A stretch of DNA of 64,000 bases from Escherichia phage ST0: the sequence record MF044457; one strand, given 5' to 3'. Below are positions 9,760 through 45,063 of the stretch, one piece after another. The notes below the pieces were generated by a model that saw only the letters and a program-made list of their open reading frames with translations, was not told the origin of the DNA and made no database searches. How positions within the stretch are numbered: the first letter of the stretch is position 1; every line of letters starts with the position of its first letter. Position numbers and translations under genes: made by a program.

Positions 9760-9765
9760 TAAAAA

Positions 9766-9781: not shown

Positions 9782-9847
9782 TTTCGGGGTTTACATCTTC
9801 CTCTAGGCATGATATGATGTACTTACACAAACCAAGAGGAAAACACT

Positions 9848-10222: not shown

Positions 10223-10223
10223 G

Positions 10224-10252
10224 TTTACTTCTCCAGTAGTTGTGTTATTATA
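10224..10252 (+). promoter_or_regulatory. early promoter (GTTTAC -35, TATTAT -10)
   Basis: GTTTAC, 17 bp spacer, TATTAT, then AGACCTATCA extension. Confidence 0.55.
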
Positions 10253-10277
10253 GACCTATCAACTACCGGAGAACAAA

Positions 10278-10595: not shown

Positions 10596-10783
10596 GCAAA
10601 TTAACTAAAGTTACTTTTATTGGCTGGTTTAAAAGCGGTGAGATGTTCACTAAAGATATCATGTTATCAGGTGATCGCGAAGAAATCGAGTGGGTTACGG
10701 TACAACTTGCTGAAGTGAACAACGCATTAGTTAAAGCATTTGTTAATGACGAGAAAGTTTTTGAAGCTGATTTCAGAGGATAA
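10592..10783 (+). CDS. hypothetical small protein
   Basis: Start moved to ATG at 10592 overlapping the upstream stop (ATGA). Confidence 0.4.
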   Translation: MSKLTKVTFIGWFKSGEMFTKDIMLSGDREEIEWVTVQLAEVNNALVKAFVNDEKVFEADFRG

Positions 10784-10784
10784 T

Positions 10785-10997
10785 ATGTATTCAACTGTGT
10801 TTAAACCATCAACATACGAATTTGCATCAACTACACAATGGAAAGCTCTTATTCTGGAAGGATGGGAACTAATGATGGACTGTGAAGCATCTGAAAAGTT
10901 TCCACACGGCAAAGTGGACTTCGTTAAATTTGCTGTACGTCCGACTAAACGACAGATTCGTCAAGAAAAACGCAAATTTCGCAAAAGTTTAAAATAA
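10785..10997 (+). CDS. hypothetical small basic protein
   Basis: Start moved to ATG at 10785, 2 nt after the upstream stop. Confidence 0.4.
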   Translation: MYSTVFKPSTYEFASTTQWKALILEGWELMMDCEASEKFPHGKVDFVKFAVRPTKRQIRQEKRKFRKSLK

Positions 10998-11000
10998 CTG

Positions 11001-11030
11001 TTTACAAGCACCACATACTGTGTTACTATC
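11001..11030 (+). promoter_or_regulatory. early promoter
   Basis: GTTTAC, about 18 bp, TACTAT. Confidence 0.5.
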
Positions 11031-11057
11031 TTTTTATCAACTACAGAGGAAATTAAA

Positions 11058-11426
11058 ATGAAAAAATTAATCGCTTTAACAATGATATTTGGATTAACCG
11101 GATGTGGTGCCCATGGCTTTATCCCTAATAACGTTGGCCAACTGATTTACAATCCGAATGTTAAACAGTATGACCAACCTAAAGTTGAAGTGGAAGACCC
11201 GGTTACTGTAGGTAATCGAATGGTTCAAGCTGATGCCCATGCTCAACGTTATCGTGACTCTGATACTGTAGCATTGCCAAAAGAACAACGCGTTAAAGAA
11301 CATTGTCTACAGGCTACTGAAATCGCATTCATTCGCTATGTTGAAACAACCGGTAAAGAGCCCACCCAGAAACAAATCGCAAATAACTACGTCCAGTGTA
11401 TTGAACGTTTAAACAAATTTAACTAA
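11058..11426 (+). CDS. putative lipoprotein
   Basis: 122 aa; signal peptide MKKLIALTMIFGLTGC with lipobox LTGC. Confidence 0.6.
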   Translation: MKKLIALTMIFGLTGCGAHGFIPNNVGQLIYNPNVKQYDQPKVEVEDPVTVGNRMVQADAHAQRYRDSDTVALPKEQRVKEHCLQATEIAFIRYVETTGKEPTQKQIANNYVQCIERLNKFN

Positions 11427-11429
11427 TTG

Positions 11430-11459
11430 GTTTACACCAAAGTTAAAATAAGATATTAT
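11430..11459 (+). promoter_or_regulatory. early promoter
   Basis: GTTTAC, about 18 bp, TATTAT. Confidence 0.5.
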
Positions 11460-11487
11460 AAACATAACAAATCAAGAGGAAATTAAC

Positions 11488-11736
11488 ATGGAATTATTCG
11501 TAGCTAGTTCAGTAGCGGTTTTAATCGCAGGTATTGGTTCAATCATCATTTACATGTTGCCTTGGGTAATCGCACTTATTCGTGGCACAAAAAGCACAAC
11601 AGCAATCTTCTTTGTATCTTTACTCTTTAACTGGACGATGGTTGGTTGGATTGGAACTTTAATTTGGTCTATCGTTGCCGAAAAGAAATCTGCTCAGCAG
11701 CCTCAACAAGTAATTATTATTCGCGAAAAAGAATAA
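11488..11736 (+). CDS. small integral membrane protein (two predicted TM helices)
   Basis: 82 aa; two long hydrophobic segments; RBS AGAGGA. Confidence 0.6.
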   Translation: MELFVASSVAVLIAGIGSIIIYMLPWVIALIRGTKSTTAIFFVSLLFNWTMVGWIGTLIWSIVAEKKSAQQPQQVIIIREKE

Positions 11737-11740
11737 ACTT

Positions 11741-11770
11741 GTTTACATTATAGATGGACTATAGTATAGT
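11741..11770 (+). promoter_or_regulatory. early promoter
   Basis: GTTTAC, about 18 bp, TATAGT, then TAGTCCTATCA extension. Confidence 0.55.
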
Positions 11771-11799
11771 AGTCCTATCAAATCAACTAAGGAGTTAAA

Positions 11800-12093
11800 A
11801 TGAAAAAGTTATCATTGGCAGCAATCTTACTCGCAGTATCATGTGCACCAGCTCCAGTTACGGCAGGTTATGATAAAGACCTCTGTGAGTGGTCAATGAC
11901 TGCAAATCAAGAAGATGTTGAACAACAAATCTTCTCTGATATCATGAACATCACTAAACGAGACCGTCCTAATATGGTTAATAAAGTTGTTGAACAACTT
12001 AAGTCTGGCGGTATCATGCAGTACAATTATGTTTTGTATTGTGACCCTAATTTCGATAACAAAGATATCGTAACCGAAATCACAGGTGAATAA
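11800..12093 (+). CDS. secreted periplasmic protein, possibly spackle (Sp)-like
   Basis: 97 aa with N-terminal signal peptide MKKLSLAAILLAVSCAPAPVTA; size and signal peptide match T4 Sp (97 aa precursor). Sequence match is from vague recall only. Confidence 0.55.
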   Translation: MKKLSLAAILLAVSCAPAPVTAGYDKDLCEWSMTANQEDVEQQIFSDIMNITKRDRPNMVNKVVEQLKSGGIMQYNYVLYCDPNFDNKDIVTEITGE

Positions 12094-12094
12094 T

Positions 12095-12745
12095 ATGATT
12101 TATTACATGCACAAAAACGCGCCATTTAAATATGGTAAATTTCCTAATGCACAATGTTATAATATAACGCCGAACGAAAATAATAACGGATACCATATTG
12201 GTGTAATTTTTGTAATTGTTAAAGATAACGAAATCGTTGCCTGGGCAGATTTTAAAGGTACAACGTATGATGTTAATCCGGTGCCTTTCACATATTACAA
12301 TATAATGGATTTGGCATATGATTATAATTGGTTTAATCATGACGCGTTGGCTCATATTGAAGGTGTAGGATTTGACATCTCTTATTCTAGCTATTCATTA
12401 TGTCCTATGAGCCGAGCTCACGGTAAAGATGCATCATATCTTTCATTTCGGAAACGCGTAAACTTCAAACGTAGTACAGAGTATGTTGGTGGTCTCTTTG
12501 TTAAAGATAATAAAATAACCCGTATTAGTTATCCTTTAAGTGTAGGTCAAAAAGATGTTGATGTTGATTTAGACTTAACCGAAAATAACATTAATCGTAT
12601 TGCTTCTGTATATTTTGATATCGATGAAAAAATTGTAGTGTGTGGATACGAATTACCACCTGAAGAAAAGGCTGAAGCAATCGAAGTCGAATTAGAAATT
12701 TCTGTTGATGACCAAATATTTAATGCATTTATGAATCGAGGTTAA
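12095..12745 (+). CDS. hypothetical protein
   Basis: ORF track 12086..12745 (GTG); start moved to ATG at 12095 just after the upstream stop. Confidence 0.5.
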   Translation: MIYYMHKNAPFKYGKFPNAQCYNITPNENNNGYHIGVIFVIVKDNEIVAWADFKGTTYDVNPVPFTYYNIMDLAYDYNWFNHDALAHIEGVGFDISYSSYSLCPMSRAHGKDASYLSFRKRVNFKRSTEYVGGLFVKDNKITRISYPLSVGQKDVDVDLDLTENNINRIASVYFDIDEKIVVCGYELPPEEKAEAIEVELEISVDDQIFNAFMNRG

Positions 12746-12746
12746 A

Positions 12747-12944
12747 ATGACTACTGCAATTTGCACTGGTTCTAAAATTAGTGTTTTTACAAGTTTTGAA
12801 GATTATGAAGTTGTTTCAAAACACCAATACCATATTAGCGTAAAAGCTAATGACGGTGTAATTTGGAATATTCCACAGTATGAAGGCACTACGTATGAAG
12901 TCACAGATATAAATGGTGACAAAGCAATCTTTGTAATTGATTAA
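12747..12944 (+). CDS. hypothetical small protein
   Basis: ORF track 65 aa; starts 2 nt after the upstream stop. Confidence 0.4.
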   Translation: MTTAICTGSKISVFTSFEDYEVVSKHQYHISVKANDGVIWNIPQYEGTTYEVTDINGDKAIFVID

Positions 12945-12963
12945 ATATACTCAGGAGGTACCT

Positions 12964-13431
12964 ATGGGTATTATTAACACTGCAATAGATTCTGTTTATG
13001 CATATAAGTTTATTCGACTAATGCAAAAACCTTTTACCGAATGGAAAGCATACGAAGCCAAAATCATCGATGAACGTGGAAGTGTTCTTAAACGTCCTTC
13101 TACTCCCGAAGAAAAAGCGGCTTATACACCTTTTCATGCTTCAGTTCGTTCAATGAAGCGAATGATGAGCACTGTTCCAGGTCTTAATGGAATGGCCTCA
13201 ATGATGTCTGCCTGGAGTGCTGTAGCTTCACGCTATAACATTACGGAAGAACAACAGAAAGAAATATTTAAAGAACTCCCTTTATTTGAGGATATGGTTG
13301 CTGGTGATTCAGGTGGCAGCTCTCAAGCTATTGCATCAGGAACAACTACAGGTGCAGTCGTAAATAAAGGTCCAGAACAAATTCCTTCCAAGAAAAGAAA
13401 GCGAATTAAAGTAAATATTAATAAGTTGTGA
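12964..13431 (+). CDS. hypothetical protein
   Basis: ORF track 12937..13431; start moved to ATG at 12964 preceded by AGGAGG. Confidence 0.5.
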   Translation: MGIINTAIDSVYAYKFIRLMQKPFTEWKAYEAKIIDERGSVLKRPSTPEEKAAYTPFHASVRSMKRMMSTVPGLNGMASMMSAWSAVASRYNITEEQQKEIFKELPLFEDMVAGDSGGSSQAIASGTTTGAVVNKGPEQIPSKKRKRIKVNINKL

Positions 13432-13470
13432 TATGATGGCCTTATTAATTTAAGGCCTCTGGAGAATACT

Positions 13471-14493
13471 ATGGCTGAATGGATAGATAATGAATTTGCT
13501 TATCGTGCGTTTTCTCACCTACCTCGTTTTAGACAAATCAATAATTCAAGCACATTTAAATTAACATTTCGTTGTCCAGTTTGTGGCGACTCCCAGACAG
13601 ATGCAATGAAAGCTCGCGGATGGTATTACGGCGGTACTCCTGGTAATGTACATTGCTATAATTGTCAATACCACAATACAATTTCCGGATACTTAAAAGA
13701 ATATGACGAAGAGCTTTATCGCGAATATCTAATGGAAGTTCGTAAAGAAAAAGCTAGAATGGAACCAAAGATTGAAAAGGTTCCTGAAACTAAGCCGGAG
13801 CCAGAGAAAAAGACTATAAATTCTTTGCCGTCTTGTTCTCGTCTGGACAAGCTGCCTGAAGAGCATCCTATTGTGAAATATGTTAAGTCTCGATGCATTC
13901 CTAAAGAATCATGGAACAGATTATGGTTCACATTAGAATGGCCTAAATTGGTCAACAAGATTCAACCTGGTACGTATAAGAAAGAGATTCCCGAACCACG
14001 TTTAGTGATTCCTATTTTTAATAAAGACGGGAAGGCTGAGTCATTCCAAGGACGTGCACTTCGTAAAGATGCTCCTCAGAAATATATCACTATTAAAGCG
14101 TTTGAGTCTGCAACAAAAATTTATGGTGTTGAACGTGTTAAGGAAGGAGACGTCTGGGTAATGGAAGGCCCTATTGATAGTTTATTCATACCCAATGCAA
14201 TCGCTATTACAGGCGGCTCAATAGATTTAGATGTAGTACCATTTAAAGAACGTCGGGTATGGGTAATGGATAATGAACCTAGGCATCCGGATACTATAGC
14301 TCGCATGAAGCGATTAGTTGATGCAGGCGAACGTGTCATGTTCTGGGACCGAGCTCCGTGGAGATCAAAGGATGTGAATGATATGGTAATGAAAGAAAAT
14401 GCAACACCACAAGAAATTTTAGAATATATGAAACAGAATATTTCAAGTGGGTTGCATGCTAAAATGAGATTATCTCGTTATTCTAAGATTTAA
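13471..14493 (+). CDS. 61: gp61 DNA primase
   Basis: 340 aa; zinc ribbon CPVCGD...CYNCQY and near-identity with remembered T4 gp61 (FKLTFRCPVCGDSQTD, RVWVMDNEPRHPDTIARMKRLVDAGERVMFWD). Confidence 0.95.
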   Translation: MAEWIDNEFAYRAFSHLPRFRQINNSSTFKLTFRCPVCGDSQTDAMKARGWYYGGTPGNVHCYNCQYHNTISGYLKEYDEELYREYLMEVRKEKARMEPKIEKVPETKPEPEKKTINSLPSCSRLDKLPEEHPIVKYVKSRCIPKESWNRLWFTLEWPKLVNKIQPGTYKKEIPEPRLVIPIFNKDGKAESFQGRALRKDAPQKYITIKAFESATKIYGVERVKEGDVWVMEGPIDSLFIPNAIAITGGSIDLDVVPFKERRVWVMDNEPRHPDTIARMKRLVDAGERVMFWDRAPWRSKDVNDMVMKENATPQEILEYMKQNISSGLHAKMRLSRYSKI

Positions 14494-14687
14494 ACAAGCC
14501 CTATAATAGCAAATGCCAAATCAACTACAGTATCCAATGGAACAGAAGGAACCATAACACCATGGGCAACTAACAATGGCGCAATCCCGAAGTTCCATGA
14601 AATAATGCCACCTACAACTATTGCGGCGATAGCAGTTTTCTTTTTATTGCCTTTAATAGCGTTGATTAACGATGGAAGTTTAAACAT
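14490..14687 (-). CDS. small hydrophobic membrane protein encoded antisense to the surrounding early genes
   Basis: 65 aa; strong RBS AAGGAGA 5 nt upstream of ATG on the minus strand; two hydrophobic stretches. Confidence 0.5.
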   Translation of the reverse strand: MFKLPSLINAIKGNKKKTAIAAIVVGGIISWNFGIAPLLVAHGVMVPSVPLDTVVDLAFAIIGLV

Positions 14688-14775
14688 AATATCTCCTTAG
14701 TTACCTATTATTTATTACGCTTTATAAAATTAATGTTAGAATTAACTCTCTTATACTGAATTGAAAGGAAAAATA

Positions 14776-15297
14776 ATGGCACACTTTAACGAATGTTCAC
14801 AACTTATTTCTGGTGTTGATAAAGCAGAAGAAGCTTATTTTAATGCTCTGATTCACGAAGATAAAGACCCACTGCAGGTAATGCTTGATATGCAGAAATC
14901 TTTACAGGTTCGTCTGGCAAATGACAAGCCTGAACATAACAAACATCCTGATGAATTGGCCACTGCTGGTGATGTTGTTGATTGGCTGCGTAATCAGAAA
15001 GATTATATTGATGATGAATTCCGTGAACTGCTGACTTCACTTGGTGGTATGAGCAATGGTGAAAAAGCCGCTAGCTCTGTATGGAAACCGTGGAAGGCGC
15101 AACACGCTGAATATCGAAATCGTCGTATCGATGAACTGTCTCCTGAAGACCAGCTTGAAATTAAATTCGAGATGATTGATATTCTACATTTCGTTCTAAA
15201 TATGTTCCAAGGTCTAGGACTTTCTGCTGAAGAAATCTTCAAACTGTATTACCTGAAAAACCAACACAACTTTGAACGCCAGGATAATGGTTACTAA
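14776..15297 (+). CDS. 56: gp56 dCTP pyrophosphatase (MazG-like dCTPase/dUTPase)
   Basis: ORF track starts at a TTG at 14761; ATG at 14776 gives MAHFNECSQLI... matching the remembered T4 gp56 N-terminus; RELLTSLGGMSNGEK and EIKFEMIDILHFVLNMF conserved. Confidence 0.85.
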   Translation: MAHFNECSQLISGVDKAEEAYFNALIHEDKDPLQVMLDMQKSLQVRLANDKPEHNKHPDELATAGDVVDWLRNQKDYIDDEFRELLTSLGGMSNGEKAASSVWKPWKAQHAEYRNRRIDELSPEDQLEIKFEMIDILHFVLNMFQGLGLSAEEIFKLYYLKNQHNFERQDNGY

Positions 15298-15303
15298 TTA
15301 AGT

Positions 15304-15311
15304 TATAAATA
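15304..15311 (+). promoter_or_regulatory. late promoter TATAAATA upstream of soc
   Basis: Exact TATAAATA about 30 nt upstream of the soc start. Confidence 0.6.
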
Positions 15312-15342
15312 CACCTGTAATTAAACAACAAAGGAGTTAATT

Positions 15343-15579
15343 ATGGGTGGTTATGTAAACATCAAAACCTTTACGCATCCTGCTGGTGAAGGTAAAGAAG
15401 TTAAAGGTATGGAAGTTTCTGTGCCGTTTGAGATTTATTCAAACGAACATCGGATTGCAGATTCTCATTACCAAATCTTTCCATCAGAAAAGGCAGCATA
15501 TTCTACTGTAGTTTCTGATGCAGCTGATTGGAAAACTAAGAACGCTGCAATGTTTACGCCTACAGCAGTAAGTGGTTAA
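15343..15579 (+). CDS. soc: Soc small outer capsid protein
   Basis: 78 aa; GYVNIKTF...HYQIFPSEKAAYSTV matches remembered T4 Soc. Confidence 0.9.
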   Translation: MGGYVNIKTFTHPAGEGKEVKGMEVSVPFEIYSNEHRIADSHYQIFPSEKAAYSTVVSDAADWKTKNAAMFTPTAVSG

Positions 15580-15588
15580 ATAATTTAA

Positions 15589-15615
15589 GGAATCCTTCGG
15601 GATTCCTTTTTTTTT
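15589..15615 (+). terminator. UUCG-tetraloop terminator after soc
   Basis: GGAATCC-TTCG-GGATTCC followed by nine T. Confidence 0.8.
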
Positions 15616-15624
15616 GTTTCTACA

Positions 15625-15654
15625 GTTTACAACCACTAAAAACTGTGTTAAGAT
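15625..15654 (+). promoter_or_regulatory. early promoter
   Basis: GTTTAC (duplicated GTTTACAGTTTAC), about 18 bp, TAAGAT. Confidence 0.45.
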
Positions 15655-15682
15655 ATTCTTACTTACTCAAGAGGAGAACAAT

Positions 15683-15910
15683 ATGTTAAATCGTTGGATT
15701 AAACCTAATAACACATTAGGTGCTTTGATTGCTCAAGAAGTTTCGTTGAAATACGGTCTTGGATATTACGATGATGTAGTCGTACACTCATTCATGATGG
15801 ACGGCGAAGACGTCAAATTTAATGCCGAAATCCGTTGGGATGACGGTGGTGTCCGTTTTGTTCGAGGAACAATTAATGCTTACGATGCTGAAGAAGTTGT
15901 TTGCTGTTAA
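15683..15910 (+). CDS. hypothetical small protein
   Basis: Start moved to ATG at 15683 after RBS GAGGAGAA; the ORF-track start lies inside the terminator/promoter. Confidence 0.4.
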   Translation: MLNRWIKPNNTLGALIAQEVSLKYGLGYYDDVVVHSFMMDGEDVKFNAEIRWDDGGVRFVRGTINAYDAEEVVCC

Positions 15911-15923
15911 ACCAGGCGAAGGT

Positions 15924-16124
15924 ATGATGCCTATTCCTGATACACACGAAAAAAGTTGGGAATATATCGGTGACGGAATGATGGAAGAAGTTGTTCGTCC
16001 AAAAACAAAACAGGTTAATGCTTCAAGCTCTTCCGATTATAATCATTCATACGTATCGTCTTGGCCTGGTGATTCCGGGTCAAGTTATTCTGATTGTGGT
16101 TCAAGCTCAGGGAGCTGCGAATGA
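15924..16124 (+). CDS. hypothetical small protein with Ser/Gly-rich C-terminus
   Basis: Start moved to ATG at 15924 after RBS GAAGG. Confidence 0.35.
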   Translation: MMPIPDTHEKSWEYIGDGMMEEVVRPKTKQVNASSSSDYNHSYVSSWPGDSGSSYSDCGSSSGSCE

Positions 16125-16300
16125 ACAAGATAGTTAAATGGTTTAAAAGCTGGGACGATGGTGTCGGTCCAGAAGATTGGCTGGATGTTCTTGAAGAGAA
16201 TATGGCTAAAGAATTCCAGAAACACGAAGAGAAGCTCATCGAAGATGAAGGCGAACGTATTGTAAAACTTTATATGGGTGAACCATCGAGGAAATTATAA
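16121..16300 (+). CDS. hypothetical small protein
   Basis: Start ATG at 16121 overlaps the upstream stop (ATGA). Confidence 0.35.
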   Translation: MNKIVKWFKSWDDGVGPEDWLDVLEENMAKEFQKHEEKLIEDEGERIVKLYMGEPSRKL

Positions 16301-16764
16301 TGGATGCTATGTTATTTAAAATGTATTTGCTTGAAGCCAAGTCGTTTAAACATATACCAGTAGAAGATAAGACTCCACTAGAAATAGCTATTCTCATTAA
16401 CAAAAGTCTAAATAATCCGCAATATATCGTAGAAGAATTCTGCAAATTGCAGATTCCTAAAGGTTACAAAATTCGTGTAGAGCGAGTTGGAGCTATTACT
16501 CATTCTAAAAATTCTCCGTTTAGTCTTGAAGAAGGCATAAAGGACTTAGGTTATGAATCTACGGAAAATGCAATTTATGTGAATCCTGAAAAGCGTTTAG
16601 ACTTGTTTGAAAAGCGAGACCATAAGTATTTTGCCAAAAAATACTTTATTACATCATTAGCAGATTTAATCCATTTGCAACGAGCTATTTGGAAATTTTT
16701 TAAGACAAAAGGTGTAGCGCTAGAAACATTCTCCGAACCTGCTAGTTTTTATCTCGGTGAATAA
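16300..16764 (+). CDS. hypothetical protein
   Basis: ORF track 154 aa. Confidence 0.5.
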   Translation: MDAMLFKMYLLEAKSFKHIPVEDKTPLEIAILINKSLNNPQYIVEEFCKLQIPKGYKIRVERVGAITHSKNSPFSLEEGIKDLGYESTENAIYVNPEKRLDLFEKRDHKYFAKKYFITSLADLIHLQRAIWKFFKTKGVALETFSEPASFYLGE

Positions 16765-16945
16765 TATGGACTTGATGAGTATGTTTGATGAGCCTGAAGT
16801 TGAGGCTCCTAAAGTGCATCGTAGTGAACTTGTTGATGAACTAGATAGTATTATACAACGTCACGGCTTTAGTTTACCTGTTGAAGCCCTGAAAGACCTT
16901 GCCTCTTATTATGACGACCCTCCACCATGGAGTCCTTGGAAATGA
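16757..16945 (+). CDS. hypothetical small protein
   Basis: ORF track 62 aa; overlaps the upstream gene end. Confidence 0.4.
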   Translation: MNNMDLMSMFDEPEVEAPKVHRSELVDELDSIIQRHGFSLPVEALKDLASYYDDPPPWSPWK

Positions 16946-17105
16946 AAGAGAAATTTAAAGAGAAATTCTTACTAGAAATCAAGGAAAAAGACTTTGAGAC
17001 ATGGTATCGAATGGTGAAAGGGTTGGCATTGCTTTTTAAAGCATCCTTATTCATGTTAGAACAACCTGGACCTGATGGACCTTTAGTAGGAAAGCTTAAA
17101 AAGTA

Positions 17106-17134
17106 GTTTACATTCCCTCCTCTCGTGTTATGAT
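17106..17134 (+). promoter_or_regulatory. early promoter
   Basis: GTTTAC, 17 bp, TATGAT. Confidence 0.5.
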
Positions 17135-17161
17135 AGGCTTATCTTTAAATGGAGGTCTATC

Positions 17162-17743
17162 ATGACATGTCAATCTGAACTTCAAGAACGCGAATACCTA
17201 ACAAATCTGATTGATAGCAAATTCACCAACCAAGAACAAAACATTCTCTGGGCTTGCACCGATTCTAAGGAAGACCCGGATTTCCACTATGAATTAGACC
17301 ATCTTGTTCGTAAGCATATGACTTCTACAGTACCAGTAGAACTCTACCGTGGTGTAACTCCAGAAGAAGTAGAACGTCTTTCCCTTCTTTCTGTTGGATG
17401 TCATTGGTCTCCTGGACGAGTAACATCGTTCACAACTGATTTCAGTACAGCTCGTCAATTCTCCGGGAGCTGGGAATATCAGACGTACACTATTCTTAGT
17501 CTCAGGAATGCTCCATTCATTTTTGATTACTACCAAAACATGGTTAACATTGTACTTGCCGGAAAGAATCCTAAGCATGTTATGGAAGAAACTCGTATCG
17601 ATGTCCTAGATATGATTGAATCTGAACAAGAGTATATGGTCTCAGGTATCTCTAGATTTGAGATTGTGGAAATTGAAGACTTAGAATATGACCCTTTATC
17701 TCGGTTATACAAAATCATTCATTTGAAAATGTTGAATTTTTAG
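17162..17743 (+). CDS. ADP-ribosyltransferase, ModA/ModB family (R-S-E type)
   Basis: 193 aa; ELYRGV (Arg), VTSFTTDFSTARQF (S-x-S/T region), ESEQEYMVSG (catalytic E-x-E-like). Confidence 0.75.
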   Translation: MTCQSELQEREYLTNLIDSKFTNQEQNILWACTDSKEDPDFHYELDHLVRKHMTSTVPVELYRGVTPEEVERLSLLSVGCHWSPGRVTSFTTDFSTARQFSGSWEYQTYTILSLRNAPFIFDYYQNMVNIVLAGKNPKHVMEETRIDVLDMIESEQEYMVSGISRFEIVEIEDLEYDPLSRLYKIIHLKMLNF

Positions 17744-17772
17744 TGTACAAACTCTACCGACGATGATACTAT
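17743..17772 (+). promoter_or_regulatory. early promoter
   Basis: GTGTAC, about 18 bp, TACTAT. Confidence 0.45.
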
Positions 17773-17800
17773 ACTTTTATCAACCACAGGAGAAACCTAA

Positions 17801-18409
17801 ATGTTTATGCCGTGTAATGAATGTGAAATTGAGGAAATGGTTCGACGTGCTCAATGCCCAGACTATCAGGATATGCTTCAGTACAAAATCGATGAGCAAT
17901 TCAGTGACATTGAACAAAGTGTACTATGGCAGTGTATGGAAAACAAGCCAGACAGCATCCAACAAGATTTAAGTGCAATTGTTCGTAGAAATTGGTCTTC
18001 TTCAGTTCCTGAGACAATGTATCGTGGAATCTCTAAGAAAACTATGGCCACACTCGATGATAAAGGCGTTGGTAGTATTATTAAATTTGACAGAGTAATG
18101 AGCTTCAGCCCAGTGTTCAGTGTAGCACGTAACTTCGCTTCATATAATTTTTATGGAACATTTAATATGTTCTGCATCAAAGATGTACCATTTGCTTTCA
18201 ACTTCCGTGAACATATGCTTAATATGATTCTGGCTGCACCGTCTTGTGAGTTCAATGGAGCTTTCCCTGAAGCGACAAGACGGTCTAATGCTAGACTTAT
18301 ATCTGACGAATGTGAATTTATGCTCCCTATAGGGACTACACTGCGTGTAGATTCTATTATTCAAGATGGACGTTATACAATCTGGAATCTGTCTATTGTC
18401 GGTTACTGA
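17801..18409 (+). CDS. ADP-ribosyltransferase, ModA/ModB family (second paralog)
   Basis: 202 aa; TMYRGIS, VMSFSPVFSVARNF, SDECEFMLP follow the same R / S-x-S / E-x-E layout. Confidence 0.75.
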   Translation: MFMPCNECEIEEMVRRAQCPDYQDMLQYKIDEQFSDIEQSVLWQCMENKPDSIQQDLSAIVRRNWSSSVPETMYRGISKKTMATLDDKGVGSIIKFDRVMSFSPVFSVARNFASYNFYGTFNMFCIKDVPFAFNFREHMLNMILAAPSCEFNGAFPEATRRSNARLISDECEFMLPIGTTLRVDSIIQDGRYTIWNLSIVGY

Positions 18410-18483
18410 CTGGATTGGAATAACCGGATGGAACTCAGAACCATTATAACACATAAAAAATTAAAGCATTTTATGAAAAAAGA

Positions 18484-18512
18484 GTGTACACTACCTGAGG
18501 GCATGATATTAT
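18484..18512 (+). promoter_or_regulatory. early promoter
   Basis: GTGTAC, 17 bp, TATTAT, then AGACCTATCA. Confidence 0.5.
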
Positions 18513-18561
18513 AGACCTATCAGCTAAATGACCTAACGTCCGTAAGACAGAGGAAAATATT

Positions 18562-19308
18562 ATGTTATCAAATAATAAAATTAACAAAATCAATCGTCGT
18601 CTTGACCACACCAGAGCTTCTGCGAAGAGACGCTCTAAGGATTTTAACTTAGACTTTAATTACCTTAAAAACATTCTTGATCAAAAGGTCTGCGCTTACT
18701 CAGGTGAATCTTTCAATAACTCTGTTGAAGGTGAGAAATTATCCTTAGAACGTTTTAATAATGATATAGGCTACATTAAAGGTAATGTTATCCCAGTTAA
18801 GAAAAAATATAACACGGCTCGTTCTGATTTAACATTAGAAGAACTTATTGAGAAACGTGACGCTGTTGCAAGACGTATCGCTAATCCTTCTGCCCGTAAA
18901 GTAGAGAAACTTAATCTCGACGAGAAGAAATGGGCCCAAATTAAAAAGGTTTATGGTACTATTTTAAAAATCCGAGCAAAACGTGAAAATCGTGTTAAGC
19001 ATATGGCGAACATGATGAAAAATCAACCTTTATCTAACGAATCTAAACTTAGAATTGTTGCTTTGAAAGCACGCATTAATGGCTCACATCAAGCAGAAGG
19101 CCATGAACTTACTAAACTCAACGTTCTTCTTAAAGGCTCTGACTGGAAAACTAAAACTAAATTAACTGACGCTGAATCGCTTTTCGATACATATGATAAA
19201 GTTATCCAAGGTCTGCAACGTTTTGAAAAGATCGGTTTCATTGGTAAATTAAAATTGAAACGTGGCTTACCACTTAGCGCATCATTATTCCAACTGATTA
19301 AAGGTTAA
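18562..19308 (+). CDS. basic protein at the srd position
   Basis: 248 aa, Lys/Arg-rich; position between the mod genes and dda matches T4 srd; no sequence recall. Confidence 0.45.
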   Translation: MLSNNKINKINRRLDHTRASAKRRSKDFNLDFNYLKNILDQKVCAYSGESFNNSVEGEKLSLERFNNDIGYIKGNVIPVKKKYNTARSDLTLEELIEKRDAVARRIANPSARKVEKLNLDEKKWAQIKKVYGTILKIRAKRENRVKHMANMMKNQPLSNESKLRIVALKARINGSHQAEGHELTKLNVLLKGSDWKTKTKLTDAESLFDTYDKVIQGLQRFEKIGFIGKLKLKRGLPLSASLFQLIKG

Positions 19309-19310
19309 TT

Positions 19311-19622
19311 ATGGTTTATGTATATGCAATAGTTTATCGAGATATGGAAGGATTTACTGTCCCGGTTCCACTTGATGAGCATTGTCCTGCGGTATTTTTT
19401 AGAAAGGATATTGCAGATAAAGTTTTCGATACTCTGAAAACACAGTATAAAACAGATTTAAAAATGGGAGTTCTAAGAATGGTCGAAACTCCGCGTAAGT
19501 TCTGGTTTAATAAGCTTGAAATGAAACACGTTAAACTAGATGCGGAGACGCAAAAATTGTATCAACGAATCCTGGATACAGGCCGTATTGTTAGTATTCC
19601 AATTGCAGGGACTTTACGATGA
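19311..19622 (+). CDS. hypothetical protein (dda.1 position)
   Basis: ORF track 103 aa; overlaps the dda start. Confidence 0.45.
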   Translation: MVYVYAIVYRDMEGFTVPVPLDEHCPAVFFRKDIADKVFDTLKTQYKTDLKMGVLRMVETPRKFWFNKLEMKHVKLDAETQKLYQRILDTGRIVSIPIAGTLR

Positions 19623-20932
19623 CATTTGATGATTTGACTGAAGGCCAGAAAAACGCCTTCAACGTTGTTATGAACGCTATTAAAGAAAAGAAACATCACG
19701 TAACTATTAATGGGCCTGCTGGTACAGGTAAAACAACCCTTACTAGATTCATCGTTGAAGCCCTTATTTCTTCTGGAGAATCAGGTATTATTTTAGCAGC
19801 CCCTACACATGCCGCTAAAAAGGTTCTAAGCAAACTTGCTGGTCAAGAAGCATCGACTATTCATAGCATTCTTAAAATCAACCCAACTACATACGAAGAA
19901 AACGTATTGTTTGAACAGAAAAAGGTTCCAGACTTAGCCTTGTGCCGTGTACTGTTATTTGATGAAGCGTCAATGTGCGACCGCTCTCTGTTTAAAATAA
20001 TGTTAGCTAGTATCCCTAAATGGTGTACAGTAATTGGAATCGGCGACCGATGCCAGATTCGTCCGGTAGACCCAGGCGAATCAACTGCGTATCTAAGTCC
20101 TTTCTTCACTCACAAAGACTTCGTGCAATGCAACCTTACAGAAGTTAAACGTAGCAATGCACCAATTATTGATGTTGCTACTGATATTCGTAATGGCAAA
20201 TGGATTTACGATAAAGTAGTTGATGGACATGGTGTTCACGGATATACAGACCTTAAATCGTATATGATGAACTATTTTAACGTCGTTAAAACTCCTGAAG
20301 ACCTTTTCGAAAATCGAATGATGGCATTCACAAATAAGTCGGTGGACAAGTTAAATTCAATTATTCGCCGAAAACTTCTTGAAACAGAAAAACCATTTAT
20401 TAAAGACGAAGTCATTGTTCTACAGGAGCCATTTACTAAGACATATAAGCTAGATGGTAAAAATATGACCGAAATGCTTTTCAATAACGGCCAATTCGTT
20501 CGTATTCGAGATGCTGTAGAAACGTCTACATTCGTTAAAGCACGTGGTGTTTCAGGCGAATATATGATACGATACTGGAATCTTACAGTAGAAACATATG
20601 GGGATGATGAAGAATACATCCGCGAAGATATAAAGGTTATTTCTTCCGAAGAAGAGCTTTATAAATTCAATTTGTTTTTGGCTAAGACCGCAGAAACATA
20701 CAAATTTTGGAATAAAGGTGGTAAAGCTCCATGGAGCGAATTCTGGGATGCTAAACGTATGTTCACTAAGGTGAAGGCACTACCAGTATCAACCTTCCAT
20801 AAGGCCCAGGGTATGTCTGTTGACACGGCCTTTGTTTATACACCGTGTATCCATTATGCCGATTCAGAATTAGCTAAACAGTTATTGTATGTCGGCACAA
20901 CTCGTGGTCGGTTTGACGTCCATTTTATTTGA
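19619..20932 (+). CDS. dda: Dda SF1 DNA helicase
   Basis: 437 aa; MTFDDLTEGQKNAFN..., Walker A GPAGTGKTT, and C-terminal region match remembered T4 Dda. Confidence 0.95.
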   Translation: MTFDDLTEGQKNAFNVVMNAIKEKKHHVTINGPAGTGKTTLTRFIVEALISSGESGIILAAPTHAAKKVLSKLAGQEASTIHSILKINPTTYEENVLFEQKKVPDLALCRVLLFDEASMCDRSLFKIMLASIPKWCTVIGIGDRCQIRPVDPGESTAYLSPFFTHKDFVQCNLTEVKRSNAPIIDVATDIRNGKWIYDKVVDGHGVHGYTDLKSYMMNYFNVVKTPEDLFENRMMAFTNKSVDKLNSIIRRKLLETEKPFIKDEVIVLQEPFTKTYKLDGKNMTEMLFNNGQFVRIRDAVETSTFVKARGVSGEYMIRYWNLTVETYGDDEEYIREDIKVISSEEELYKFNLFLAKTAETYKFWNKGGKAPWSEFWDAKRMFTKVKALPVSTFHKAQGMSVDTAFVYTPCIHYADSELAKQLLYVGTTRGRFDVHFI

Positions 20933-38676: not shown

Positions 38677-39336
38677 TTATTTAGCCCTTCCTAGTATTCG
38701 GACCGCTTGGTTGCATATAGCCGCTAAGCGGTCTTCCTCAAGTATATTACTCCCCTTATACCAATACATCGTCACAGTTCCGGCATAGATGTTATCCAAA
38801 TTAAAGTATGGACAACTATACATATAAGAAAGTTCGGCAGTCTTAGATTTTGTAGGCAAAAATGCAAATTCTGATTTAGATGAGAAATGACGGCCACTTA
38901 AATGAATTATATATTCATTGGCCGTTTTATCCACCGGGAATCCGCCAAGGGACTTTTCAGAAATTGTGCTAGGTAGTTTGCCTTCATAAGCTATAAGGTC
39001 GACGAAATAATTTAAGTTTTTAGGTCTGAAAGAATACACAGCACTAAAATCCGCACCAGATGAGATATGAACTATTTGCAGTTGTTCTAGAGCCGCAGAT
39101 TCAAAACGTAAAGCTCGTTCTTTTTGGATTATTTCAGTATAAGTATCATACTTAGCTCTTACATAATAATCCAGCAAAATACTTCCTTTGTACCATATTA
39201 GTGCCATTAGGAACAAAAGAATAATTACCGCTACTCGGGACATTAAAACCTTTCCAGTAGCGTTATCTTTGAAAATACGATCTAGCAACCCAAATAGAAT
39301 ATCACTAAGTGAAAATGATACTTTTGGTGTTGCCAT
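38677..39336 (-). CDS. t: holin T
   Basis: 219 aa; MATPKVSFSLSDILFGLLDRIFKDNATGKVL...AVYSFRPKNLNYFVDLIAYEGKLPSTISEKSLGG matches remembered T4 holin. Confidence 0.92.
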   Translation of the reverse strand: MATPKVSFSLSDILFGLLDRIFKDNATGKVLMSRVAVIILLFLMALIWYKGSILLDYYVRAKYDTYTEIIQKERALRFESAALEQLQIVHISSGADFSAVYSFRPKNLNYFVDLIAYEGKLPSTISEKSLGGFPVDKTANEYIIHLSGRHFSSKSEFAFLPTKSKTAELSYMYSCPYFNLDNIYAGTVTMYWYKGSNILEEDRLAAICNQAVRILGRAK

Positions 39337-39345: not shown

Positions 39346-39897
39346 TTACTTAAAGATATTTATAATCGCTTTGACAATAGATTTGTTTTCAAGGTCAGGG
39401 AATTTAGGGAATTCACCGCCAAGATGTTCATGCTTTTCTAAAAGGGCAAAGAATTTTTTGAGCTCTTTATATTTTCGTTTTTCTTCTCTATTAGCAACCT
39501 CTGCGTCAATAAGAGAATTTAAAACACTGAATAATTTATAGAGTTCATGAATTTTCTTATCACGTTGAACTACGCGTTTATATGCTTCATCTTCCTTCCA
39601 CCCGTCGCCGGTCCAAATGTCAAATTCACCAGGTTCTTCTGTAGTAACATTTTGAAGAGCACCTGGTGTGTCAATAACAATTTTTTGCTTATCATAAGTC
39701 CATACTGTTTTTCCACGATGGTCTTCAACATATACCCATTCTTGCTCGCGTTCGTCAAATATAACAGCATAGCCTTCTTTAGGGTCTAAAGGTTTTTTTG
39801 GTGTCGAATGAGCCGGAAATCCTACGCCTTTTAATGGTTTATAATTTTCTTCTTTGTAAAATTCTTTAGTGTCAAAATAATAGTGATAGAGTTTCAT
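39346..39897 (-). CDS. 38: gp38 distal tail fibre assembly chaperone (T4 type)
   Basis: 183 aa; MKLYHYYFDTKEFYKEENYKP...FALLEKHEHLGGEFP matches remembered T4 gp38. Confidence 0.92.
   Translation of the reverse strand: MKLYHYYFDTKEFYKEENYKPLKGVGFPAHSTPKKPLDPKEGYAVIFDEREQEWVYVEDHRGKTVWTYDKQKIVIDTPGALQNVTTEEPGEFDIWTGDGWKEDEAYKRVVQRDKKIHELYKLFSVLNSLIDAEVANREEKRKYKELKKFFALLEKHEHLGGEFPKFPDLENKSIVKAIINIFK
39357..39364 (-). promoter_or_regulatory. late promoter TATAAATA for holin t
   Basis: Minus strand reads TATAAATA, then AAGGAGGT RBS and ATG of t. Confidence 0.6.
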
Positions 39898-39926: not shown

Positions 39927-42900
39927 TTATGCTAAACGAACGATATAGTTAAAAGCAACGTTTTTAACTGTGTTTTCTGTATTACCTGTACTATTTACAG
40001 TGATAGTATGACCGTGCGAACCAATAGCTACTGAATGAGTGTGAGCGCCAATACCTACGGTGTGAGTATGAGCGCCAATACCTACCGTATGCGCATGGTT
40101 GCCTGTGGTGCTAGTAGTACCAGACCAACTATGGGTGTGGGCACCATCATTTGATGTTTTACCGACCTTAGTTGCTAAAGTCGAACCAGTGATACCTGAG
40201 TTAAGTTTAGCGTATGCGTTTGCACTTATCGTAGTAACCCCGTCTCTAAACAAATCGTCTGCCCATGCAGCAGTGACCTGTGGACCTGAACGCGTGTGTT
40301 GGTGAGCACCAGCGGAACTAGTATTACCACTCACTGTATGGCTATGGTTGCCAGTGGTATTACTGGTCTTAGTACCATAATCAAAGCTTGAAGTCGTTTT
40401 GCTACCGTAATCAAAACTTGACGTATTTTTAGTACCCAAATCTGTGTTTGATGCACTTGCACTATGGCTATGTGACTTAACACCGTCTGCTTCTGTACTT
40501 AATACAGCACGACCAGATGGTTTACCCTTGATAGTTTGACCACGCATATCAGGCAGAGTGCCGGAAGGATACACTGCAGCTAACTTAGGATACAAGCCAG
40601 CATCAAATGTTTGACCTTCCATTATGGCATAGCCTTCAGGAGGTGTATCAGTAGGCCAAGGAATCGGAGCACCAATCGGGTAACTCGAGACAATATCCGT
40701 CTTAAGGTTATTTATTGTGGTATTCAAGTTAGCAAAATTACCAGAACCACCAGTGATATTACCATCAGTACCAATACGAACATTACCAGCGCCTAATTTA
40801 CCAGGAGAATAAAAATCACCGTTTTTATTAAATTCCCATCCAAGATCCTTTATAACAGCACCAGTAGAAACGCCGTCACCACCTTCGTGATAATGAACTC
40901 TAAAGTTACCACCATTAATTAAAGTACCAATAGAATAGCAACTATTATTTTGAACGTATCTTTGTTTCACAATAGGAACATAAGTGCTTGTATCGGTTCT
41001 ATCTATATTCATGTAGAACGGAGCACGAACGTTTTCATTATTTTGTGAAGCAAAAGAACCAGCTCCAGCAGGTCGTGCAGTATCAGTACATTCAGCGTCG
41101 ATATATGCCGATTGTCCTAATTGCATACGGTAATTAGGAGAAATGCGACTATGGCTAGTTATAACAACAAGTTTATTATCATTATCAACGGTCACCATAT
41201 TACCGCCAGCACCGTCATCACCTAACGTAACAGAATGGCGCATTTGAACCATACCATTATTAAGACTAATACTTAGTGGACGGAGATTACTTATTCCACC
41301 ACTTTCACCTGCATCTTTAAGTGTAGGTATAATATGCAAAGACGCTTCAGAACGACGGAAAATAGCTCCATATTCAGCATTGTAAATACGGAAAGCATCT
41401 GCGGTATTACCGATTTTAACTTGACCGGTAATAGAACCGCCACCGGATAAAACAAGCCCGTTATCCATAGTAACTTGTCCGGATAATGCACTTAATCCAT
41501 TAACTCTAAGACTTCCATCGGTGATAATGCTCCCTCTAGCATTAACTTGTCCATTGAACTGGGTTACAACAGGTCCCACAGTTTCTGAATCGGTTGGAGC
41601 TATGCGCTGAGAATAAAAATAATATCCCTGCCCGTCAGCTACTTCAAAAACTGTTTCACGAGTACGATCGCCGGATGCGTTAAATGAATTACCCCATGCT
41701 TTAACAGTTACGTAGCTTTTATTCTGCCCAGCACGAGTACCACCTTCCCACAAAATTTGCTTAGTGCCATCAACTGTAGTAGTTGGAGCGAATGTTAGCC
41801 CGGCAGTAGAATTATTAGCTGCTAAATATACACCATTATATATTGAAAGCTGCTTAGTGGATGTAATACCGCCATCAGCATAAAACATCACATTATTTGC
41901 ACCGGTTACCAATTTCAAAATACCCGGGTTAATTTCCATACCTTGTTGGGTATTGATATTCATCTGACCTGTACCACGGAAATAATGGGAAAATTTACCG
42001 CCAGAATTATATCCAATGTGGGTTTGACCATCACCTGCATTGTTTGTATCAGCCTGGGTTTGAACCGATAAAAGCGCGGCGTTGGTTCCAGGCATTGTCC
42101 AGGTTCCGCCTTGGTCTTCTGAGCGTCCAAATAATGCTTTACGAGTACTACGGAAACTATCAGGAGTAATAGAAGCAACAGAATTCCAATTACCTACTAA
42201 ATCATAAACGCCTTGCTTAATATATTTTAAACCAGTTGCAGCATCGCCCAAAGCAATATATCTTTCTCCCATTGGAGTAGGAGAGCCATAGTTGTTAGTA
42301 TTTTCGTCAGCAGTAATTGTGCCAATAGCAAGTGAACGACGTAATACCATTGCGCCATCATTACGAAGACCCATTAATTTAGTAGTAAGTGTATTTCCGG
42401 TCCACCAAGAAATTTCATCGTTCTTACCAGTTTGAGCTGAAGCGATTTCATGGTAAATAGTTCCGCCTGATTTAGCTCGAACTTTACGAAGATAGTTTAT
42501 ACCATTTTCTTCACCTGTTCCAGGATAAACATATTGAACTAATGATTGTGAATCATATTGTCCGAATGCCTTTGTATCTAAAATAATATTTTTAGTATTA
42601 ATCTGAGGTGAAGTAATATTTCCGAGAGCTGCAATATTTCCAGATGTAGTTATACTACCTCCTGATACTGCTAAACCTCCGCCGTCAACAGTAAATCCGC
42701 CGTCGCGTCGAAACGTCCAATATTTCGAATCGCCAGATTCATTGATATAATGAATCTTCAACGAACCTTCAGAAACTAAAGTACCTAATGAAAAAGTTCC
42801 ATCTTTAAAGCGTTGTTTAATTATAGGATTATATTCCGAAGTAGCGGTTGATGCGGAAATATCCATGAAAATAGGGGCTTTTGCCGTGTGTTGACCTGCC

Positions 42901-43199
42901 CAAGAACCAACTCCGGTGGCCTTATAAGCAAATTCGATATATCCACCAGATGCAACATTTTGTGAGCCTATTAAATTAAATGTACCTGTCTGAGTATAGT
43001 TACCTACGTGAGTTACATTACCGTTAATATCGCCGCCTTTAGCAAAGCCTAGGCTAATAATATTACCGAGGTCATCTTTAGTAAAAAGAGTTCGATCTTT
43101 TAAGTTTATCGCTAATTCGCCTTCGGCTAATTGTGCTGCAGTAGGATTAACTCCTGCCACTTTGCTTCTTTTAAATTGTATCTGTTTTAATGTAGCCAT
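39927..43199 (-). CDS. 37: gp37 long tail fibre distal subunit
   Basis: 1090 aa; N-terminus [13 protein letters not shown]...; C-terminal His-x-His repeats ([34 protein letters not shown]). Confidence 0.95.
39995..40100 (-). repeat. tandem nucleotide repeats encoding the His-x-His units of gp37
   Basis: GTGTGAGCGCCAATACCTACGGT and GTATGAGCGCCAATACCTACCGT are adjacent near-identical copies. Confidence 0.6.
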
Positions 43200-43207: not shown

Positions 43208-43873
43208 TTAATAATAGCCGAAATCTTGAACAGAATCTTTAATTACAATCTGGTCGAAACGAGGAACATGATTAGCCTCAGACGCCGGATTCTGTGAGAA
43301 AAAGTTTGGTGCTGTTAAAGTACCAGCCATGGTATCGCCAGAACGCAATACACGGGAATTTGCGTTATCTGTAACAATATTTATTCGTCCATCAACGTAA
43401 TCTTTTCTTGTGAGATCATTTGCTGCAACCGGAGCAGTCATATCGCTTCTTACTTGTCCTGAAGCAGATACAACGCCTTTTGTACTAATATCGCCATTAC
43501 GTGTGTTAATTACAACAGTTCGAGCTGCTGAACCTTGCGATGATTTAAAACCAATACCATTCCACGAAACAATATCGATATTTGCTACAGCAAAAGTAGC
43601 ATTATCACCGTTACCTGGATAAACGCCGCATGGGTTTGTGTTGTTTACAGCATACGGAACTTGAACGCCACCGTTAAATGTTACCTTTGATGCATACGTA
43701 CCACCATTAGCTTTAGAAACGAAATCATTATCAGCCGCTTGTGGTTTATTATATTCTGAATAGAGTTTAAACGTTTTATACAGGACGTCATCACCTGCTG
43801 GCATTAAAGGGAAATTACCTTGATGCCATATGACAGCACCGCCAGTTGTACTACCAGCTTTTAAATCGGCCAT
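43208..43873 (-). CDS. 36: gp36 tail fibre hinge connector
   Basis: 221 aa; position and length as T4 gp36. Confidence 0.9.
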
Positions 43874-43935: not shown

Positions 43936-45063
43936 TTATTCCGATGCTTCTTTAAATTCTTGTCCAAATACCTTACCAGTATCAGTTGAAGATTGAGTAG
44001 GTAATGTCATTATGTCTGGGGCACTTAAAGATTCTGAAACATAATTTACACGAATACCATTTATACCAAACTCGGCAGGTTTTGAAACGCTTCCATTACA
44101 TGATACTTCAGTGAATATAACGTTTCTTAATCCACCTTGCCCGACTGGAGCTGTACGATAACAATAAATCGTGAACCCGTCAGCACCAGCAGGAATTTCT
44201 ACGTAGTCTTCATATATCTTCCATTCACCTGCGGCCCCATCAAAGTTTGTATCTTTAAATGAAATAGGTGAAGTAGAAGGAGATTTAAAGAAACGAATAG
44301 AAAGTCGTGTCGTCCCTTGTGCTAACAAATCAGCATCGGCCATTAGTTGGAATTTCATATAAAGGAAATCTCCAGGCTTCAATTTATACCCAGCGAGAGG
44401 TGTAATAAGGGATGTTGTAGGCATCCTTTTAATTTCATTATTAGTACCTCCAACAGCAGATAAAAATGTGTCTGTCGATTCGTACGTACGACTAGGGAAG
44501 CCGGTAGCACCAATATCATCGATCGTGTCGTACACAACATCAAGTGGTGTACTATAGTCGGTTGAAGTTTTCTTATTACTATACTTAATATGCTCTAGTG
44601 CTATAGCATTCTTACCAGAAATATAAAATGCTGAATAAGAAATGTCCACTATATTTAAAACTTGTTGAGCTAATGGAATAACAGAACTCCCAGCTTTAGT
44701 AAACCACGCAAGAACTTCTGGCGGAAAGTTTGTTTTAGCGTTAGTAACAAGAGCAAATATAAAATTAGAAGCGTATGTGTCCATGTAAGTAACAAATGCA
44801 CTTGACGTGGCGTCGTTTTCAGTAGAGAAATTATATGACTTAGATTCAACTACTGCACCTGTTGTAGGATTTATTACACGAACGTTTAATCCAACAGAAA
44901 AAACCTGGGACCCAAGTGGATTATCTTGGAACTTAATATAAGCAGGAGATGTTGATAGCGGGCAAGAGCCCGCTATGCTTAATTTAAATCGTACTGAATT
45001 GCTTTCCGATAAAAATGGCGTTTGGACGTATCCTTGTCCGAACTTAGCCATAAATTTTTCCAT
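43936..45063 (-). CDS. 35: gp35 tail fibre hinge protein
   Basis: 375 aa; position and length as T4 gp35. Confidence 0.9.
   Translation of the reverse strand: MEKFMAKFGQGYVQTPFLSESNSVRFKLSIAGSCPLSTSPAYIKFQDNPLGSQVFSVGLNVRVINPTTGAVVESKSYNFSTENDATSSAFVTYMDTYASNFIFALVTNAKTNFPPEVLAWFTKAGSSVIPLAQQVLNIVDISYSAFYISGKNAIALEHIKYSNKKTSTDYSTPLDVVYDTIDDIGATGFPSRTYESTDTFLSAVGGTNNEIKRMPTTSLITPLAGYKLKPGDFLYMKFQLMADADLLAQGTTRLSIRFFKSPSTSPISFKDTNFDGAAGEWKIYEDYVEIPAGADGFTIYCYRTAPVGQGGLRNVIFTEVSCNGSVSKPAEFGINGIRVNYVSESLSAPDIMTLPTQSSTDTGKVFGQEFKEASE

Follow-up and report, generated by a model that had tools for sequence, protein, structure and literature searches.

Paired stem repeats and a variable tip in the C-terminal needle of a T4-type gp37

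The gp37 locus and its histidine motifs

The window, by which we mean the whole 64,000-nucleotide stretch of Escherichia phage ST0 DNA that was analysed (sequence record MF044457), carries a tail-fibre locus on its minus strand. The tandem-repeat interval at 39927-40400, which had been singled out in a first-pass annotation, is the 3' end of the open reading frame for gp37, the distal subunit of the long tail fibre. The genes at the locus are the following.

38677-39336, minus strand: holin t, downstream of gp37 (Pfam PF11031, E=1e-90)
39346-39897, minus strand: gp38, a T4-type tail-fibre assembly chaperone of 183 aa (Pfam PF02413, Caudo_TAP, E=1.2e-5)
39927-43199, minus strand: gp37, distal long-tail-fibre subunit (3273-nt open reading frame, 1090 aa plus stop)
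43208-43873, minus strand: gp36, upstream of gp37 (PF03903, E=7e-38)
near gp37, minus strand: a 375-aa open reading frame in the position of gp35 (by its place in the gene order)

The 183-aa Caudo_TAP protein shares 69% identity with T4 gp38 over the first 90 aa of the latter, its N-terminal half, and a search of the PDB found the middle of gp37 to resemble gp34 fibre structures. For the full-length gp37 gene the closest phage record is that of LH01 (93.5% nucleotide identity), where it is annotated as 'long tail fiber protein distal subunit'. The tail-fibre gene diverges more than the backbone of the genome, the first 20 kb of the window being 98% identical to JS09-like phages, a group whose relatives carry the Mosigvirus label in their records. 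The phage is a JS09-like Mosigvirus with a T4-type gp37.

The C-terminal 278 aa of the protein correspond to T4 gp37 residues 786-1026 (chain positions 2-242 of 2XGF, by phmmer), and the domain can be divided as listed here from its N-terminal to its C-terminal end.

39930-40763, minus strand: C-terminal receptor-binding domain as a whole, aa 813-1090 (phmmer against PDB 2xgf_A, E=9.8e-87, chain 2-242)
40530-40673, minus strand: collar domain, aa 843-890 (Pfam PF07484, E=7.4e-11, 42.3 bits against a cut-off of 24)
40464-40472, minus strand: HxH motif 1, HSH, aa 910-912, start of the ascending stem (aligns with T4 H883/H885)
40365-40454, minus strand: three 10-aa (30-nt) units of the ascending strand (repeat search and a gap in the T4 alignment)
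40338-40346, minus strand: HxH motif 2, HSH, aa 952-954 (aligns with T4 H915/H917)
40296-40304, minus strand: HxH motif 3, HQH, aa 966-968, the last ascending motif (aligns with T4 H929/H931)
40140-40295, minus strand: hypervariable tip cassette between HxH3 and HxH4, aa 969-1020 (52 aa), the presumed receptor-contacting head (identity against relatives)
40131-40139, minus strand: HxH motif 4, HTH, aa 1021-1023, the first descending motif (aligns with T4 H966/H968)
40008-40097, minus strand: descending HxH motifs 5-8 at 9-aa (27-nt) spacing (Tandem Repeats Finder, repeat search and a 9-aa gap in T4)
40089-40097, minus strand: HxH motif 5, HAH
40062-40070, minus strand: HxH motif 6, HTH
40035-40043, minus strand: HxH motif 7, HTH
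40008-40016, minus strand: HxH motif 8, HGH
39930-40007, minus strand: conserved C-terminal tail (invariant alignment columns and nucleotide identity)

The first-pass annotation was right about the histidine repeats themselves, and the peptides that it quoted, HSHTVSG, HQHT and HTHSWSG among them, are all present; its interval takes in motifs 2-8 but leaves out motif 1 and part of the 30-nt repeat. Eight HxH motifs lie within the C-terminal 185 aa of gp37, and every one of the 16 histidines in that stretch belongs to an HxH pair. Shuffling the 185 aa 5000 times gave a mean of 1.3 HxH and a maximum of 6, which rules out a chance origin of the run. Motifs 1, 2, 7 and 8 keep both their histidines without exception across 31 homologues; in motif 6 this is true of the second histidine alone, and the first histidine of motif 5 is nearly invariant. 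The tail, whose conserved GN(T/A) stretch the window protein shares, has the invariant alignment columns T255, G260, N261, E263-N268, N272, Y273, V275 and R276, and its codons 261-278 are identical at the nucleotide level in five of six relatives of the same length (in R5505, identity is 93% over codons 261-270).

That these motifs bind metal, as had been suggested from the T4 tip, is well borne out by homology: the match to 2XGF is strong (E=1e-86), all seven HxH motifs of T4 align with HxH motifs of the window, which has an eighth, and the T4 needle holds seven coordinated iron atoms along its length, with H929 and H931 both iron-binding and essential (PMC6957217). In T4 the stem comprises residues 882-931 and 960-1009 and the tip residues 932-959 (PMC6957217), the fold being a six-stranded antiparallel beta needle (PMC9659904). 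A single-chain AlphaFold2 model of the window domain, built on the 31-sequence alignment, was poor (pLDDT 58, pTM 0.28) and was set aside because the needle is an intertwined trimer.

Variation in the tip and in the stems

Amino-acid identity of the tip to that of its relatives is bimodal, at 92-98% in PNJ-6 and ATK47 and 15-42% in 15 others, and the collar and both stems are 80-100% identical among close relatives. The borders of the variable part are sharp in the DNA. AV110 and p000v follow the window at 93-100% nucleotide identity until about codon 160 of the domain, just past HxH3, and identity recovers in both from about codon 201, just ahead of HxH4; over codons 161-200 it is 33-63% in AV110, p000v, O157tp3 and R5505. 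The gene is also a mosaic: PNJ-6 and AV110 match it at 97-100% in the collar and ascending stem but at only 70-90% in the descending stem, and codons 251-260 of the domain resemble the R5505 type. Recombination within the conserved flanks that bear the HxH motifs would fit such wholesale differences of tip between genes that are otherwise nearly identical. In T4, host specificity has been mapped to residues 907-996 (PMC9659904), and we take host specificity to be decided for the most part by the cassette that forms the tip, from HxH3 to HxH4.

The position of the histidine motifs at these borders allows a further reading, in which the HxH-coding DNA on either side of the tip is mainly a short recombination homology (a set of 'His boxes') for exchange or duplication of tips, its nucleotides being conserved under selection for that role beyond what metal binding demands. 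The sharp breakpoints next to HxH3 and HxH4 and the mosaic structure of the gene fit this reading, as does a 35-nt direct repeat (74%) with one copy in the region of HxH5 and the other in that of HxH2, on opposite sides of the tip. It also has a precedent, since Tetart et al. reportedly described in 1996 and 1998 an expansion of host range via duplications of small adhesin domains and recombination between conserved motifs, and the duplicated domains were reportedly bounded by GxHxH motifs. However, constraint on the protein suffices to explain the conservation, the histidines being invariant here and essential in T4, and synonymous sites within the units are not unusually conserved. A direct-repeat search found no duplication of the tip in the window, where a single tip is present. 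We therefore consider a dedicated recombination role for this DNA improbable as the main reason for its conservation, and it would in any case be compatible with a metal-binding stem and would not replace it. An adhesin cassette with conserved histidine-motif borders is a description linked to Montag 1990 and Tetart 1996/1998; the window agrees with it in its variable tip between conserved HxH-bearing stretches, and not in the tandem tip duplication known from T4 host-range mutants.

DNA repeats, copy number and the coupling of the strands

The first-pass annotation had pointed to tandem nucleotide repeats near 40040-40095 and had proposed that slippage there might change the number of units and with it the host range. 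The repeats exist, but they are short and imperfect: the single array that Tandem Repeats Finder gives spans 40021-40085, with a period of 27, 2.4 copies, 86% matches and a score of 95. By repeat search 27-nt units lie at 40008, 40035 and 40062. Pairs of units are identical at 23, 19 and 13 of 27 bases. The best pair (23-24 of 27, depending on the frame) holds an exact run of 15-17 nt at 27-nt spacing, which is the only substrate for mispairing in the units. Three further units, of 30 nt each, are repeated in tandem at about 40365-40455, with copies that are 77% and 63% identical.

Mostly, the DNA repeats are a by-product of the peptide repeat. Between HAHTVGIGA and HTHTVGIGA, six of the eight common residues use the same codon where 3.45 would be expected from the codon usage of the gene (P=0.07), and for the remaining 27-nt unit pairs codon identity is at expectation; so it is for the two SFDYG units, with 4 of 9 codons in common and an expectation of 3.98. 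Only one pair, of 10-aa units, rises nominally above what is expected, with 4 of 4 codons against 1.81 (P=0.03 before any correction for the seven comparisons made). In a test for concerted evolution, the best two of the 27-nt units are slightly more alike within genomes than between them (21.05 against 20.25 of 27 bases), a value reached in 5 of 5000 permutations; the effect is small, and a handful of highly divergent sequences confound it. The HAH/HTH difference between these two units is identical from lambda Stf to the window, which implies that the duplication is old and has not been homogenised.

Copy number was followed by comparing the C-terminal domains of 16 GenBank phage records, TuIa and one IMG/VR contig. 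The layout of the window, with three ascending units and five descending HxH, is found in 13 T-even-type phages, in lambda Stf and in TuIa, each strand being one unit shorter in T4 and W143. Set against T4, the window has one more 10-aa (30-nt) ascending unit, a second TSSFDYG(S/T)KT where T4 has one SFDYG unit fewer, and one more 9-aa (27-nt) descending unit, HTHTVGIGA, that has no T4 counterpart. The comparison of repeat counts with T4 that the first-pass annotation had in mind thus does find a difference, of 8 against 7 HxH (3+5 against 3+4), with a wider range across the family.

Near relatives give a different picture. A 219-nt query from the descending stem matched 276 phage records, and in a spread sample of 60 of these no 27-nt gain or loss was seen, each sampled match across the units being one piece with a span in the record equal to that in the query; genes of the T4 class align to the query only from a point past the missing unit. 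All sampled isolates with window-type DNA in the descending stem have the same copy number. Imperfect units together with a constant copy number had been named beforehand as what would speak against slippage: the units are indeed imperfect, and their number is constant among the sampled window-type isolates but not at longer range, where T4, W143 and a single metagenomic contig differ.

That contig, L001 (IMGVR_UViG_3300030021_000020), has three ascending units and only four descending HxH. A clean deletion of 27 nt lies between two GGTGCTCATACCCA direct repeats in its DNA, which is R5505-like on either side, and among the matches listed all 25 isolates that match it are longer by 27 nt. Recombination between a T4-class and a window-class gene was considered as its source and is ruled out by the descending stem, which is R5505-like and not T4-like on both sides of the deletion. 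L001 is either a genuine product of one-unit slippage or unequal exchange, or an assembly collapse; it shows that loss of one unit can happen, yet rarely.

The relation between the two strands was examined in two collections of needles. While close relatives were taken from GenBank phage records, family-wide length classes were drawn from IMG/VR loci and a large protein search, which yield mostly prophage side-fibre genes. In the first set, of 119 distinct needle regions from all these sources, the span from the first to the last HxH was measured on each strand, and the regions fall into five classes with one region, L001, outside them.

Ascending span 32, descending span 18: 1 region
Ascending span 42, descending span 27: 32 regions
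Ascending span 46, descending span 32-33: 51 regions
Ascending span 55-56, descending span 41: 33 regions
Ascending span 62, descending span 45: 1 region

The second set, independent of the first and more diverse, consists of 96 usable representatives clustered at 50% identity, one of which has too few ascending HxH for the gap to be measured. The gap from HxH1 to HxH2, within which the 10-aa units lie, comes to about 12+10n in 94 of the 95 measurable representatives, n being the count of 9-aa steps at the terminal end.

Gap 32, n=2: 54 representatives
Gap 41-42, n=3: 34 representatives
Gap 52, n=4: 4 representatives
Gap 62, n=5: 1 representative
Gap 73, n=6: 1 representative

In the one outlier an extra HxH splits a 52-residue gap, so that the rule is still satisfied. 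Altogether 213 of 214 scorable needles have ascending and descending strands in balance (from about 215 related ones, n=2 to n=6, with T4 at n=2 and the window at n=3), the sole true exception being L001. In an antiparallel up-and-down needle a layer on one strand needs a partner on the other, and hence the numbers of units would be coupled. The data support a rare gain and loss of units over evolutionary time, coupled between the strands, although each length class may perhaps descend from a single ancestor and the independent coupled changes may be as few as four. L001 counts against a strict balance, in that natural DNA can at least yield an assembled gene for an unbalanced needle.

These results bear directly on the idea that the 27-nt tract is prone to slippage, its copy number shifting readily and altering the length of the needle and so the host range. 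The window and T4 are exactly one 27-nt unit apart, the family ranges from 2 to 6 nine-residue steps, the window offers a 17-nt exact direct repeat at the right spacing, and L001 has just the clean one-unit deletion between direct repeats that slipped mispairing or unequal crossing-over would give. Yet the array is only 2.4 copies long with an 86% match, codon identity of its units stays near what the peptide repeat predicts, L001 is possibly an assembly artefact, and sampled isolates aligned across the units do not differ in copy number. A change on one strand would moreover upset the balance that nearly all needles keep; one 27-nt slip alone unbalances the needle because the number of descending units is tied to that of the ascending ones. 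The repeats also sit in the buried metal-binding stem, away from the tip that contacts the receptor, and slippage as a routine mechanism of host range is unsupported because the part that varies is the 52-aa segment between HxH3 and HxH4. We regard it as very unlikely, and on this point the first-pass annotation finds no support.

Another role for unit number can be imagined, in which the length of the needle throughout the T4 gp37/lambda Stf family is a quantised and evolvable trait: n = 2 to 6 layers, each of a 10-aa ascending and a 9-aa HxH descending unit, would be changed by paired gain or loss of 30 nt and 27 nt, unbalanced intermediates of the kind seen in L001 would be rare and could persist for a while, and layer number would be adjusted to the surface of the host, and with it the iron content and how far the tip reaches. 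We offer this as speculation to which we would give rather long odds. The explicit 10-aa/9-aa coupling rule for n = 2 to 6 may be the only new point in this analysis, a statement of the rule not having been found in the literature examined.

The proposed layered needle and known receptor-binding proteins

The explanation that best accounts for the whole is that the feature is the C-terminal receptor-binding needle of a T4-type gp37, with a layered stem and a tip that sets specificity, and we put its probability at roughly 0.9. By homology with T4, three chains would form a six-stranded antiparallel beta needle, each of them running up through the ascending stem to the receptor-binding tip and down again through the descending stem. 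Each HxH would give two histidines per chain, and hence, over three chains, six ligands that could hold one iron ion octahedrally on the axis of the fibre. The 27-nt and 30-nt periodicities of the DNA would then reflect layers in the structure, in each of which a 9-aa descending unit pairs with a 10-aa ascending one. The number of layers is fixed in the lineage of the window and seldom altered in evolution, on both strands together with one exception.

With eight HxH (three on the ascending strand, five on the descending one), each fibre tip is predicted to hold eight metal ions here against seven in T4, and the coupling rule predicts the same. The eighth ion in the window needle, like the pairing of the extra ascending with the extra descending unit, which follows from the bookkeeping of lengths, is what we infer from the alignment with T4. 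The rule has a practical side for those who engineer chimeric tail fibres, who should choose junctions that respect it, since stems joined from different length classes would make an unbalanced needle. Annotation of the gene is also tidied, in that what matters to host range is the cassette of 52 aa at the tip (40140-40295) and not the repeats.

T4 gp37, lambda Stf and the proteins of more than 200 other phages form one family of receptor-binding proteins (PMC9659904), to which gp37 of the window belongs. The closest structural guide is the T4 tip, which shares with the window the order of collar, ascending stem, tip, descending stem and C-terminal tail, and both phages have a gene for a T4-type gp38 chaperone downstream. 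The structure of the T4 tip (PDB 2XGF) was reportedly described by Bartual et al. in 2010. Overall the two needle domains are about 60% identical. They differ in the size of the stems, about 60+59 residues in the window against 50+50 in T4, and above all in the segment between HxH3 and HxH4, which has 52 aa in the window and 34 aa in T4 and is unrelated in sequence (15% identity).

Nearer relatives share the architecture completely. The gp37 proteins of TuIa (X55190; Montag et al. 1990), PNJ-6, ATK47, R5505 and O157 typing phage 3 all have three ascending units and five descending HxH, PNJ-6 and ATK47 having the tip type of the window as well (92-98%), and the gp37 proteins of TuIa and of the Mosigvirus and Tequatrovirus phages differ from that of the window only at single positions and in mosaic stretches. 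GenBank has contained this architecture ever since the TuIa record, and many isolates have it, so the gene is a standard receptor-binding protein of the T4/lambda type and the feature is already known. Lambda Stf (orf-314/orf-401) is a more distant case of the same needle class, with eight HxH, n=3, an equal C-terminal tail and a Tfa-family chaperone downstream, although it is a siphovirus side fibre with another N-terminal shaft and a tip that is 26% identical.

Two further systems resemble the window in part. Fibres of the T2/T6/S16 type occupy the equivalent locus and have the same role in host recognition, but there a separate gp38 adhesin caps gp37 (PMC3157838), whereas in the window gp38 is a Caudo_TAP chaperone and gp37 itself bears the tip. 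Contingency loci that vary by slipped-strand mispairing likewise have an in-frame tandem DNA repeat in a gene for surface recognition; the window differs from them in its few and imperfect copies, in the lack of polymorphism among the sampled aligned isolates, and in the structural coupling of its repeat to a second one.

Unit number in the needle

The gp37 tip encoded at L001:1501-2310, where L001 is the metagenomic contig IMGVR_UViG_3300030021_000020, is of the R5505-like type and carries an exact 27-nt deletion, equal to one unit and flanked by two GGTGCTCATACCCA repeats. As a result of this deletion the needle is unbalanced, having three units on the ascending strand against four His-x-His (HxH) motifs on the descending one, and it is the sole example of such a needle among the roughly 215 that we compared. 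All of the isolates among the matches listed for L001 (25/25) are longer by 27 nt.

Considerably longer needles also occur in the family, namely at the locus L053, which has five 10-aa ascending units and six 9-aa HxH units, and in the proteins P0165 and P0228, in which there are 5-6 paired units, so that the unit number across the family ranges from 2 to 6.

Mosaicism of and within gp37

The backbone of the window (1-20000) shares 98% identity with JS09-like Mosigvirus genomes, and the top match of gp37 (39927-43199) is LH01 at 93.5%, a phage other than the relatives of the backbone. This difference is tail-fibre mosaicism of the usual kind. On nucleotide comparison, gp37 itself is also an internal mosaic, 39930-40140 against 40300-40763 on the minus strand. 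Its collar and ascending stem are 97-100% identical at the nucleotide level to those of PNJ-6 and AV110; the descending stem reaches only 70-90% with all relatives sampled, and codons 251-260 of the C-terminal domain match the R5505 type without difference.

Other modules of the fibre genes

Three further features lie in this region:
40887-40895, minus strand: ninth HxH (FRVHYHEGG), gp37 aa 769-771, in the module directly upstream of the collar
41226-41876, minus strand: gp34-like middle of gp37, aa 442-658, with solved-structure matches
43936-45063, minus strand: 375-aa ORF at the gp35 (hinge) position, Pfam ILEI (PF15711)

The ORF at the gp35 position matches ILEI, the interleukin-like EMT inducer family, at E=8e-7, barely over the gathering score, which is a surprising label for the hinge protein of a phage fibre.

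The ninth HxH sits beyond the needle; it is missing from relatives whose pre-collar module is of the alternative type (MHSYTYSH), and it is kept in T4 and in relatives having the same pre-collar module. The middle of gp37 resembles the proximal half-fibre protein gp34 in the structures 4UXE, 5NXF and 9X3R (E about 1e-12), so the proximal and distal half-fibres have a shaft module in common.
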